From a virus: 25,947 nt of DNA. A program made the translations under genes and the position numbers. Position 1 is the stretch's first letter, and each line of letters starts with the position of its first letter. This document shows, piece after piece, positions 22,185-25,640 of the stretch. The notes below the pieces were generated by a model that did not search any database, was not told the DNA's origin, and worked only from the letters and a program-made list of their open reading frames with translations. The stretch lies in the UHGV virus genome UHGV-0145877; one strand, written 5' to 3'.

Positions 22185-22736
22185 TTAGCCCATCATTTTT
22201 CTATACGCCTCTGCAGCCTGCTCCGGCGTTAAGTTGGTAATTTCTGTTCTGACTGGTCCTCCATCAGCGCCAGTCACTTCATTTTTGACGTTGTCTTTAA
22301 ACGCCTGAACAGAAACATGACGCCCAAGCAACTCAAGGTTTTTAACCTTATCAGGCCATTTGATTTTCTTCAGAAGTGCGGCGCTATCTGCGGATACCAT
22401 CTCCACGACATCCATTCCTGATAGCGTTGTGCGCCATACCTTAGGCCAGTCTTTAATGGGTTTTAGCTCACCGTTTTGCAGGAGAATGTCGAGCACATCC
22501 ATCTGGTCGATTTCAAGAAGGCGATTAAGTACGTATTCTGCATTTATTCCAACAGAGTCATTGCGTTGTGCTTTCAATTCGGAGATTCTGAATTGTATGT
22601 CAGGTTTTGACATGTTTTCGGACGCAGTACGGTTGGCTGTCTTTGCGCTGTACCCCGCCCGAATAGCCGCTTGCGTGGCGTTTAAATCGATGAGGTACTC
22701 GCGACAGAACATTTCTTGTTTGTCAGTGAGCGCCAT
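22185..22736 (-). CDS. Terminase small subunit
   Basis: N-terminus [30 protein letters not shown] is the characteristic small-terminase helix-turn-helix motif. AGGGGA Shine-Dalgarno upstream of the ATG at 22736. Confidence 0.75.
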
Positions 22737-22763
22737 ATTTTCCCCTGCTGATAAGGTAAATAA

Positions 22764-23288
22764 ATGAATCCTGAAATTTTTGAATCAAAGTTCATAATGA
22801 ACGAAGCAACTTGGCAACGAATTGAAAGGTTAGTAAATACTGAAGATGATATTGGTTTGGTTTTAAGAGTACATCTGATTACAGAAGCAATGATTGAGGC
22901 ATTTTGTTGCGCCGCTGTAGGTAACCAAAATCTATTTGATGGATTTGGTGAAAACTTAACCATGACCTATGCCGCAAAAATTCAGCTAGCTGCCAACCTC
23001 GGCCTAAATGAACACTCCGTCGCAGAACTTAAACGCCTAAATAGAATAAGAAATGTTCGCTCTCATCAAATAGACAACCCGGAAATAACTGACGCAGAAA
23101 TTGAATCATTACGAACATTTATTAGCCGAGGTGGTCAGGAAGATCTCATTAACTCAGCAAGATTCGGCATAAAAGTTGGAGACATTGAGCTGAATCTTAA
23201 CCGTCCAGATGCCAATAATCGTGAAAAATTCATAGCTATTCTTGGCAGCATCATCCTAAGGCTCACTAAACAAGTTGCAGGACAATAG
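22764..23288 (+). CDS. HEPN-motif protein (putative Abi-like RNase), lysogen-expressed accessory gene
   Basis: 174-aa plus-strand ORF, antisense to the late operon. R-x4-H motif (RNVRSH, R96 to H101, nt 23049-23066) within a predicted helical protein. Clearly AT-rich. ATG at 22764 with TAAGGT 8 nt upstream. Confidence 0.6.
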   Translation: MNPEIFESKFIMNEATWQRIERLVNTEDDIGLVLRVHLITEAMIEAFCCAAVGNQNLFDGFGENLTMTYAAKIQLAANLGLNEHSVAELKRLNRIRNVRSHQIDNPEITDAEIESLRTFISRGGQEDLINSARFGIKVGDIELNLNRPDANNREKFIAILGSIILRLTKQVAGQ

Positions 23289-23869
23289 AGATCATTGACT
23301 GAGCTAATTGATTGTTTTAGCGCATAAACCTATACCACAAAATAGCCACTTATCACGCTTCATCATTCAATTCTGGCGTGAACTGTATGCGCCTCACATT
23401 GTCGGGAGAGAAATACAGTCACTCTCCCGTCTCGATCACAAGCGGCACAAAGCCGTTAACCAACTCATGCTGAAATCGTGACGTCTTGCTCGTAACGGTT
23501 TCGCCTGTTTGGGTGGTTAACGTGATTTGGTAGATGTTGGACATTGAGAATCTCTTTATCCGCTTGTGGGGATATCAGTTAAGTTATCCCGTGTAGGGTA
23601 TAAGCCATTGTCGAGACCACTCATTGAATGGACTCTGCAATAACCGATGTCTTTCCATCAGTCCGCCACCACAAAGAATCTTTTTTGCCATAAGGCAGGA
23701 GGTTCATCTTTCAGTGGCTGCCAGTGTTATTTCCCCACTTACTGGCTTGGGTTGCTTCGCGGTACTGCCGTAACTGGTTACCCAGAATAAATTCCGGTTT
23801 CATTATCAAGCCCACCCGTAAATGGGCTTTGTAATGAAGAGTTGTTATGAAAATTGCTCTAAACAAGCA

Positions 23870-24358
23870 TTAATAGCCATCAGAAGTAATCGCTACAGAT
23901 TTCAATCCCTCAATGTCATCCTTGGACAGGGCGAACCATTCACCGTGCTTTCTCTTTGCGGCAAATTTGCGATGAAGCATGTTTTCAGTTTCTCTTCCAC
24001 CAGGGATCAGGCACTCAAGCTTCAAGCAGTCTGGTCCAGAGTTGCCAAGCGATTTGATGCGTTGTGGAATGTTGGATGAATACCCAATTTTGGTTAGCCC
24101 AGTTTTCTTCGATGACAAAACGTATACCTGAGGAGGTTCTTTTCTCTGGTCTTCCATTACACGTCTCATTGTTGCCATAAGTCCGCCGTGCATCAGCATT
24201 TCAACAAAGAACGCTGACCGAACACCTGACGACTTAAGCATGCCAGAAAATTCACTTGCCAATTCCATTAACTCTGCGATGTTTTCAGGAACTTTTTGGC
24301 AGTTATCTTCCTTGTATAAGGAAATCATTCTTTGAAGCTTTTCTTCTAATTGGTTCAT
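23870..24358 (-). CDS. T5orf172-like (GIY-YIG-like) domain protein
   Basis: C-terminal region VYVLSSKKTGLTKIGYSSNIPQRIKSL...HRKFAAKRKHGEWFALSKDDI resembles the T5orf172 domain. Probable start is the ATG at 24358 (AAGG Shine-Dalgarno); the ORF track extends to a GTG at 24514 with no Shine-Dalgarno. Confidence 0.5.
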   Translation of the reverse strand: MNQLEEKLQRMISLYKEDNCQKVPENIAELMELASEFSGMLKSSGVRSAFFVEMLMHGGLMATMRRVMEDQRKEPPQVYVLSSKKTGLTKIGYSSNIPQRIKSLGNSGPDCLKLECLIPGGRETENMLHRKFAAKRKHGEWFALSKDDIEGLKSVAITSDGY

Positions 24359-24699
24359 AGCGTCTTTACCTTTTAGAAAGTGAGCCTGTCTCACAGAAAA
24401 GCCGCCCGAGAGAGGTTGCCACCTATAACGGCATTTCTCAGGCTCACTTACTGAAAGGCTCTCGTTAATATGCGCGTGAGATGCGCGGTTTACTGCAGAT
24501 GTAAAAAGCCCCACAAATGCGAGGCTAAATCCTGGTATTTGTAATGACTGGCTCTTATCTCAACGCGGCCCCTTACCGCGCGCCAGATGCTCAATCTCAA
24601 GCATCAGCAATGAGATGTTTAATCTGGATTCACTCCAGAAGTGATCACCACCCTGTCTACAGAGCCAGATGTGAAGGATGATGAGTAAAATTATCGCTA

Positions 24700-25167
24700 T
24701 CATCGAAGGCATTGCGTCCTGATGTATTCCTGAAGCGTTCTCAGTGCTGTTTGGTCGCGGATAATTCCGTCCCGGACACCGAGAACGTTTCGTCCAGCAA
24801 CTGGAGAGAGTTCGACGGTGGCATCATTGCCCATGCCGGAGGCGCTGGAGGCTTCGGCTGAGGATGGCACAGGGCATTTTCCTTTGACGAACACCCGACC
24901 ACCATTATCAAGCTTGCGCCGAAGAGCATCATTTTCAGCTTTCGCATCAGCTAACTCCTTCGTGTATTTAGCATCGAGTGCATCAGCAGAACGCTGGCGC
25001 TGCTGCATGTCAGTAATGGTGGCGGTCGCCTGCTTCAGCTCACTGACTTTTTTATCGCGCTGCTCTTTGTAGGCGATGGCGTTATCACGGTAATGATTAA
25101 CAGCCCATGACAGGCAGACGATGATGCAGATAACCAGAGCGGAGATAATCGCGGTTACTCTGCTCAT
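24700..25167 (-). CDS. Rz: Rz-like inner-membrane spanin
   Basis: N-terminus [31 protein letters not shown] matches lambda Rz as I recall it. ATGA overlap with R. C-terminal half diverges from lambda. Confidence 0.85.
24741..24947 (-). CDS. Rz1: Rz1-like outer-membrane lipoprotein spanin, embedded in Rz in the +1 frame
   Basis: 68-aa ORF wholly inside Rz. Signal peptide with lipobox VVGC and a proline-rich stretch ([11 protein letters not shown]), as in lambda Rz1. Confidence 0.8.
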
Positions 25168-25640
25168 GCCTCAATCTCTCTGACCGTTCCGCCTACTTCT
25201 TTGAATTTTGCAATCAGGCTGTCAGCCTTATGCTCGAACTGACCATAACCAGCCCCCGGCAGTGAAGCCCAGATATTGCTGCAACGGTCGATTGCCTGAC
25301 GGATATCACCGCGATCAATCATCGGTAAAGCGCCACGCTCTTTAATCTGCTGCAGTGCAACAGCGTCCTGGCTTTTCGGAGAGAAGTCTTTCAGGCCAAG
25401 CTGCTTACGATAGGCATCCCACCAACGGGAAAGAAGCTGGTAACGTCCGGCTGCTGTTGATTTGAGTTTTGGGTTTAGCGTGACAAGTTTGCGAGGGTGA
25501 TCGGAGTAATCAGTGAATAGCTCTCCGCCAACAATGACGTCATAACCATGATTTCTGGTTTTCTGCCGTCCGTTATCAGTTCCCTCTGACCACGCCAGCA
25601 TATCGAGGAACGCCTTACGTTGATTATTGATTTCCACCAT
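25164..25640 (-). CDS. R: Endolysin (lambda R-type lytic transglycosylase)
   Basis: [39 protein letters not shown]... is near-identical to lambda R as I remember it. Confidence 0.9.

Follow-up and report, generated by a model that had tools for sequence, protein, structure and literature searches.

A T5orf172-domain gene of a lambdoid phage genome lies in an exchangeable cassette slot behind an intrinsic terminator and a structured RNA leader

Genes encoding T5orf172-domain proteins are a major class of putative homing endonucleases in phages and are found most often beside terminase genes (PMC10448857), and HNH-AP2 is likewise a recognised homing-endonuclease architecture (PMC10448857). The T5orf172 nuclease Odn (Gp88) of phage ICP1 cuts DNA and depends for this on the Glu that is equivalent to the one discussed below (E180A control; PMC8263062). 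Here we analyzed UHGV virus genome UHGV-0145877 (25,947 nucleotides (nt), hereafter the window), which encodes on its minus strand a T5orf172/MUG113-domain protein of 162 amino acids (aa; 23870..24358, ATG at 24358-24356, TAA at 23872-23870). This protein shares the Pfam domain and a C-terminal nuclease domain with Odn and the other phage T5orf172 homing genes (PMC10448857, PMC8263062), which likewise are free-standing and have terminase or further essential late genes as neighbours. The Arg and the putative metal-binding Glu of the catalytic site are kept and, as in Odn, there is no His or Tyr in the first helix. In contrast, the ICP1-type proteins are larger, carry DNA-binding domains (CapR-like zinc fingers, DUF723, DUF4397, RepA_N) and occur in many copies per genome, whereas the window protein has a 72-aa acidic helical N-terminal domain, is present in one copy per genome and is a nuclease by prediction from its sequence.

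The closest records concern the same gene: gp64 of phage HK106 (YP_007151734), E. coli prophage proteins such as WP_016245257 and PHROG 4284 agree with it in length (162 aa), start and position after Rz and the terminator at 99.8-100% nucleotide identity. The PHROG family (phrog_4284, function unknown) takes in the whole protein with E=8.9e-88, and HK106 gp64, 99.8% identical to the window gene at the DNA level and annotated from the equivalent ATG, is already named "GIY-YIG nuclease family protein" in RefSeq. These are automatic names only. The window differs from these records downstream of the gene, where it has a HEPN-like open reading frame (ORF) and a packaging module of the Terminase_2 type. 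A second, deeply diverged allele is represented by gp68 of Salmonella phage epsilon34 and gp64 of g341c, which resemble the window in protein architecture (helical N-domain followed by T5orf172), in the slot described below and in the leader (85% identical), but share only 33% protein identity over residues 28-153. We found no published description of the slot, the leader, epsilon34 gene 68 or MUG113 in phages.

The more interesting result of our analysis is not the nuclease gene itself, but the architecture of terminator, leader and cargo to which it belongs. The DNA homology between the window and the phages phiv205-1, which carries a Rha gene, and HK620, which carries the KilA-N gene hkbK, ends four bases inside the ORF (24354) and is found again from 23836/23837 on. 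These breakpoints define an exchangeable cassette that reaches from codon 2 to 33 nt past the stop codon (23837..24355, minus strand). The 168 nt from the terminator to the ATG are ~95% identical to the regions upstream of phiv205-1 Rha and HK620 hkbK (94.6% over the leader). On the other side lies a conserved downstream flank (23569..23836, minus strand), which is 93-98% identical whatever the cargo, as judged by BLAST against 60+ loci. Just downstream of the cassette and within the block common to all slot variants, a stem-loop of 7 bp without T-run (AAGCCCA / TGGGCTT; 23808..23829, minus strand) can be read from the sequence. Rha, KilA-N, Ant and HNH-AP2 genes of P22-like and lambda-like phages share with the window gene an identical slot, terminator and leader and a junction at the start codon. 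They differ in that their products have unrelated folds and are mostly DNA- or repressor-binding proteins, and only the HNH-AP2 cargos among them are nucleases.

Three RNA elements precede the start codon, all on the minus strand. A scan identified an intrinsic terminator downstream of the lysis genes (24502..24526), consisting of a stem at 24507-24526 and a T-run, and the HK106 and epsilon34 records annotate a rho-independent terminator at the equivalent place. It is followed by a short hairpin (GCGC-AUCUCAC-GCGC, 24472..24486) that is still recognisable, with altered sequence, in divergent leaders. The third element is a long leader hairpin of ~92 nt with 34 modelled base pairs (24368..24459; folding and covariance model R1), the 3' arm of which holds the ribosome-binding site and pairs with its AAAGG. 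In detail, the Shine-Dalgarno-like AAAAGG (24369..24374), located 10 nt upstream of the ATG, is paired within the hairpin according to the sequence, the folding and the pairs at columns 132-138 of alignment A10. Folding of the 201-nt leader region (24340-24540) yielded a minimum free energy of -63.3 kcal/mol (z = -2.65), ten variants fold alike independently, and the divergent leaders in front of two protein alleles of 49% and 76% identity and of a different KilA-N gene adopt an equal fold with different sequence.

The covariance model found 85 copies of the leader among the collected loci (for example L004 5826-5940, L021 3893-4003, L026 3886-4003, L068 2890-3003 and ~80 other loci), and in nearly all of ~95 instances the end of the model coincides with the start codon of the downstream ORF. 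Upstream of 75 of the 85 copies there is a terminator-like hairpin with T-run (within 160 nt, mostly ~40-60 nt), and its stem also shows compensatory variants. Across 70 distinct leader sequences, 93.3% of the cells were paired compared to 31-53% in slid controls, 30 of the 34 pairs have changed on both sides and none of 500 shuffles reached the observed values; the alignment was fitted to the model, which favours pairing, and these numbers are therefore given together with the slid and shuffled controls, from which the margin is large. Because the register of the helix differs from variant to variant, RNAalifold paired the stem base wrongly on a plain MAFFT alignment of the divergent leaders, and the covariance-model alignment was used instead. 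We also considered the leader as a site at the DNA level. This was rejected, since the sense strand is rich in G-U pairs and outscores the reverse strand by ~100 bits (~129 bits versus ~27 bits), which places the structure in the sense RNA. A search of Rfam over 23250-24750 (E-value mode) returned nothing but a spurious mir-627 match with 24 bits against a threshold of 86 bits.

To describe what lies behind the leader, we used a sample of 83 complete ORFs that start at the ATG of the leader and fall into 21 clusters. Most of them encode Phage_pRha proteins (~39, some with ORF11CD3) or KilA-N proteins (~27, some with ORF11CD3 or P63C), followed by T5orf172/MUG113 (7) and HNH_3 (7, several with AP2), and by one ANT, one AntA and one cargo without Pfam match. 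Second, more diverged leaders stand in front of HNH_3 or HNH-AP2 genes (L155 88-198, L110 1100-1210, L112 2766-2876, L082 12975-13085, L130 8106-8216), and in L046 a diverged leader (432-542) between the Q gene and the holin precedes an HNH-AP2 cargo at 540-1052. Such second copies follow a first cassette or occupy the interval from the Q gene to the holin, and in L110 and L112 the HNH units follow a first KilA-N unit. Therefore, units of leader and cargo can be arranged in tandem or at other sites. In two further loci (L097 2360-2473, L105 2386-2499) the leader is followed by an ORF of only 11 codons (MNASAASSLNV), similar to the first residues of the AntA-type cargo in L087; apparently these are deleted, 'empty' units beside a KilA-N unit.

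The leader also settles where the gene starts. The ORF is present at 23870-24514 on the minus strand as it had been listed, with a GTG as first codon, but this GTG (24514) sits in the 3' arm of the terminator stem (24507-24526) and was rejected as start. A reading made from the sequence alone, hereafter the sequence-only reading, had preferred the ATG at 24358, and this choice is borne out by the HK106 annotation and by the exchange junction and the leader model, which both end at the ATG; the 163 aa it gave included the stop codon, and the product has 162 aa. The 52 codons between GTG and ATG are non-coding, because relatives show frame-breaking indels of 1 nt and 4 nt as well as paired compensatory changes of the RNA type. 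Several database entries start upstream, within the leader hairpin or the terminator (P0001 with 224 aa, P0003 and P0004 with 174 aa, and the Rha start at 2336 of L007), and are for this reason probably too long. Downstream of the ATG, the ratio of nonsynonymous to synonymous substitutions (dN/dS) is 0.14 against an allele that is 86% identical and 0.08 against one that is 77% identical at the DNA level, with similar values for both domains. As dN/dS values of 0.08-0.14 indicate a selected coding sequence, the comparative data establish the ORF as intact and as a real gene in the shared slot.

The assignment of the protein to the T5orf172 branch of the GIY-YIG superfamily, proposed by the sequence-only reading, is correct and far beyond chance. 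Pfam MUG113 (PF13455; E=6e-15, 56 bits versus a cut-off of 22.3) and T5orf172 (PF10544; E=2.8e-10, 41 bits versus a cut-off of 20) both match residues 77/78-151 above their curated cut-offs, and the gathering score is passed also by the epsilon34 allele and nearly all full-length homologues. The generic Pfam GIY-YIG model stays below threshold on the 162-aa protein (E=0.19). NCBIfam gave no match to the gene; in the PDB, the single sequence retrieved no entry and the profile only a weak UvrC match (E=0.39). In the AlphaFold model (mean pLDDT 87.9, a per-residue confidence measure) three helices (3-16, 24-43, 49-71; block-mean pLDDT of the N-terminal helices 81-94) are followed by strand-strand-helix-strand-helix-strand-helix, so that the two-part architecture with a helical N-terminal region holds, and the modelled C-domain has the GIY-YIG fold with a three-stranded sheet between helices, its top structural matches being GIY-YIG nucleases (SLX1, I-TevI). 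The N-terminal domain (residues 1-72; 24143..24358, minus strand) is an acidic, family-specific three-helix bundle with an isoelectric point (pI) of 5.3 (4.6-5.7 in six relatives), whereas the nuclease domain (residues 77-151; 23906..24130, minus strand) is basic with a pI of 9.4. An exhaustive profile search found the C-domain in 38,349 cluster representatives, and among the 150 best listed representatives roughly a dozen extend into the N-domain.

The motif quoted earlier for the C-terminal part (VYVLSS..TKIGYS..R...GEWF) is present, and its key residues are conserved: 64 homologues, with identities as low as ~21%, all have Y79, K90-I91-G92, R100 and E125, and H129 and G139-E140-W141-F142 are near-invariant. 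Weak profile alignments place Y79, K90 and R100 on Y19, Y29 and R39 of UvrC and on Y6, Y17 and R27 of I-TevI; the hhalign comparison with I-TevI, the sequence of which was checked only by its known residue numbers, covers the first motif only and has a low probability. Compared to canonical GIY-YIG proteins (I-TevI, the UvrC N-domain, SLX1, R.Eco29kI), the window protein has K-I-G instead of Y-I-G, with the invariant Lys90 at the position of the second Tyr, a conserved GEWF where I-TevI has Asn90, and different partner domains. Reasoned from the sequence, the spacing of 15 residues between E125 and E140 equals that between E75 and N90 in I-TevI. From this spacing and from its placement in the helix after strand 3, and not from a superposition, we infer that E125 is the putative metal-binding Glu. 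A 98%-identical cluster representative (P0002, cluster of 114 sequences) has Gly for Glu140 and Tyr for Asp110. Taken as a whole, the domain and residue data make it probable that the protein is an active DNA endonuclease of the T5orf172 branch.

The gene is found in 82 of 5426 complete E. coli genomes, in single copy and always with at least 99% identity, and the assembly index has 4624 blocks that list precisely this 162-aa sequence. In every locus inspected it lies ~200 nt past Rz, after the lysis genes, which agrees with the earlier view of an accessory hotspot, as this is the variable region between Rz and the terminase genes. The surroundings vary: the lysis cassettes are of the lambda S/R or EssD/RrrD type, and the packaging modules of the lambda Nu1/A type, the P22/Sf6 type, the HK97 type with an HNH gene or, in the window, the Terminase_2 type. 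Over ~50 loci the gene is 98.4-100% identical, the adjacent leader 83-96% and Rz 79-99%. More distant alleles keep the position: epsilon34 gp68 follows Rz behind the same leader, an allele with 49% protein identity (P0014) follows a different holin/endolysin set and a Klebsiella allele (76%) also comes after the lysis genes. A 38%-identical relative is located elsewhere, among apparent tail genes. This distribution with a fixed site, conserved flanks and near-identical copies in divergent genomes is as expected of a homing gene, but the alternative state is another gene and not an empty site. Furthermore, the gene persists in prophage remnants disrupted by insertion sequence (IS) elements (L019, L020), and some copies are truncated (P0010-P0012, P0015; in H90, 52% of the gene is covered). 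In the Klebsiella prophage (L026 4001-5187) the 76% allele overlaps by 4 nt with a downstream gene for a 232-aa Endonuclease_NS protein (PF01223), and both genes appear to be co-transcribed.

Based on these data, our tentative preference, held at somewhat below even confidence, is for a nuclease, expressed late and throttled at translation, that would attack the DNA of rival lambdoid genomes in the lytic phase, either as a homing or as a conflict enzyme. The order in the slot is intrinsic terminator, short hairpin, long hairpin that pairs with the ribosome-binding site, and start codon. From lambda biology it would be expected that the late pR' transcript must traverse this region to reach the terminase genes, and for that reason the gene would be transcribed by a Q-modified polymerase that ignores the terminator. 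Only antiterminated transcription would then reach the gene, during lytic growth, and it would be silent in the lysogen, while the hairpin may hold translation low, as would be fitting for a potentially harmful nuclease. The basic C-domain would bind and cut DNA via Tyr79, Arg100 and Glu125. A reading of DNA sequence by the acidic N-domain is unlikely, and self-association or partner binding is its more probable role. The nuclease would cut co-resident or co-infecting lambdoid genomes that have a rival allele in the slot, and repair through the conserved flanks would copy the cassette into the cut genome. Such a homing-type spread of the gene is conceivable, but we would not put it at even chances. 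It is in line with the leader being common to HNH-AP2 genes too and with signs of recent horizontal spread, i.e., a near-identical gene that is found with several lysis cassettes and with four or more unrelated packaging modules.

Several observations weigh against this interpretation. In the survey of Barth et al. 87% of the T5orf172 homing genes carry zinc-finger DNA-binding domains, whereas the N-domain here has no Cys/His zinc-finger pattern at a pI of 4.6-5.7 and no match in Pfam, PDB or fold searches to a DNA-binding module, only to generic helical bundles. Exchange at the slot needs no nuclease, as cargos devoid of a nuclease domain (Rha, KilA-N) swap at identical junctions. At least three haplotypes of the leader are found in front of the gene, the breakpoints lying no more than ~30 nt from the ATG, and no long co-conversion tract is visible around it in the loci compared. 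The second GIY-YIG Tyr is a Lys, the Asn position falls within the GEWF motif and there is no His or Tyr four residues past the Arg. Finally, this allele is in the minority, being present in 1.5% of the complete E. coli genomes and behind ~3 of the 87 leaders of a pattern-derived sample, and it is single-copy, unlike the expanded homing gene families. Our confidence is modest for three reasons: the lack of a detected DNA-reading domain, the equally clean exchange of cargos that are not nucleases and the absence of a visible co-conversion haplotype in the flanks. A bolder version, which we regard as unlikely, takes terminator, leader and ATG as a hitherto undescribed structured RNA that defines a portable slot, and the nuclease cargos as drivers of allele replacement that cut rival slot alleles. 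The leader would then be a common translational gate, perhaps opened by RNase III or another late-infection cue, and such gating would suit products whose early or excessive synthesis is toxic.

The same fold and residue evidence for an active nuclease applies equally to a conflict nuclease without homing, i.e., a late enzyme that cuts competing non-self DNA (satellites of the PICI or P4-like type, prophages, superinfecting phage or host), with the N-domain giving specificity through a protein partner, comparable to ICP1 Odn and the PLE satellite. Odn is indeed a T5orf172 nuclease used against PLE (PMC8263062), GIY-YIG nucleases aimed by domains that do not bind DNA are known in defence (SNIPE; PMC13190303), an acidic, family-specific N-domain fits recognition of protein over DNA, and the overlap with the Endonuclease_NS gene in Klebsiella suggests a DNA-degrading pair. 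Nevertheless, we consider this explanation rather doubtful: the N-domain resembles no satellite or phage protein detectable in the searches made, strongly throttled translation is odd for an enzyme that clears competitor DNA and the slot occupants are mostly non-nuclease regulators. The last point would rather speak for a non-catalytic DNA-binding or regulatory protein equivalent to Rha, KilA-N and Ant, with T5orf172 as a binding module only. Rha, KilA-N, ANT and AntA proteins together make up ~66 of the 83 cargos, T5orf172 was first grouped with Bro-N and KilA-N and predicted to bind DNA (recounted in PMC8096241), and both the departure from the canonical GIY-YIG motif (Lys for the second Tyr) and the Gly at position 140 of P0002 would agree with a loss of catalysis. 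On the other hand, the invariance of Tyr, Arg and Glu in all 64 homologues would be unexpected were catalysis lost, a related T5orf172 domain is a proven nuclease (PMC8263062) and the protein shares no domain with the other cargos, such as an ORF11CD3 tail, which makes a purely regulatory role improbable in our view.

The sequence-only reading had placed the gene in a classic moron hotspot, as a convergent accessory pair with a HEPN gene; the corresponding explanation is a defence or superinfection-exclusion moron expressed from the prophage, acting alone or together with the HEPN-like gene. The neighbour (22764-23288, plus strand) is convergent with the nuclease gene and has no match in Pfam, PADLOC or NCBIfam. 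Its RN(A/V)RSHQIDN motif (R96-x4-H101) is kept without change by 11 homologues with identities as low as 38%, which form a small enterobacterial family, and because this R-x4-H is typical of HEPN RNases, a HEPN-like fold is plausible. The location in the lysis-packaging interval, a known accessory hotspot, and the retention of the gene in IS-disrupted remnants also point toward a defence moron. While the convergence holds, the pair does not: the two genes belong to separate mosaic modules joined at ~23569-23609, since the window is a recombinant in which 23200-23609 is 99.3% identical to prophage EC931 and the sequence from 23569 on matches T5orf172-bearing phages. A stretch covering both genes occurs in none of the 5426 complete E. 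coli genomes, and the HEPN-like ORF is absent from every fetched locus with a full-length nuclease gene. EC931, the single relative that has it, carries a KilA-N gene in the slot; the ORF travels with the small-terminase module of the Terminase_2 type and not with the nuclease gene. A two-gene system is thus not supported. As for the moron, a consensus scan of the minus strand (22600-25200) revealed no sigma-70-like site, although weak or non-sigma-70 promoters could escape it, and a manual inspection of the leader agreed with only poor matches; the terminator stands directly upstream of the gene instead of downstream and the ribosome-binding site is sequestered. The link to defence is weak as well, since the PADLOC match to candidate PDC-S57 (23.8 bits, E=7e-6) is restricted to model positions 3-83 of 212, i.e., to the shared nuclease domain instead of the full length. 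A prophage-expressed defence moron is therefore very improbable. Even less can be said for a decaying or non-functional ORF, for which only the truncated copies speak: dN/dS, the many exact copies of the protein in the assembly index, the invariant motif and the confident structure model effectively refute it.

Three small ORFs on the minus strand lie around the slot. Within the conserved downstream flank, a 30-aa ORF (23711-23803; MKPEFILGNQLRQYREATQ...) is probably a gene remnant, because a similarity of this stretch to the N-terminal end of ST64T orf118 is noted in the epsilon34 record. A hydrophobic 50-aa ORF (24560-24712) overlaps the end of Rz just before the terminator, and annotated counterparts are found in several prophages and in epsilon34, where gp67 resembles Sf6 gene 65. 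In another frame inside Rz, a 68-aa ORF (24741-24947) has a signal of the lipoprotein type (…LIMVVGCSS…) and resembles the usual Rz1 o-spanin.

Taken alone, the gene encodes an ordinary predicted phage nuclease that has already been named by annotation pipelines, and the tempting "HEPN plus nuclease" two-gene system has been removed as false. What the comparison adds is that this gene represents one of the alleles at a cassette slot with sharp boundaries, which it shares with the long-enigmatic Rha, KilA-N and Ant genes and with HNH-AP2 endonucleases. The covarying leader, which hides the ribosome-binding site and is absent from Rfam, offers a handle on the timing and mode of accessory-gene expression. 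Furthermore, at this classic mosaic boundary of lambdoid genomes it can be asked whether inheritance is biased by nuclease cargos, and if the gene-drive interpretation were true, this locus would be a gene-drive battleground instead of a passive mosaic joint.

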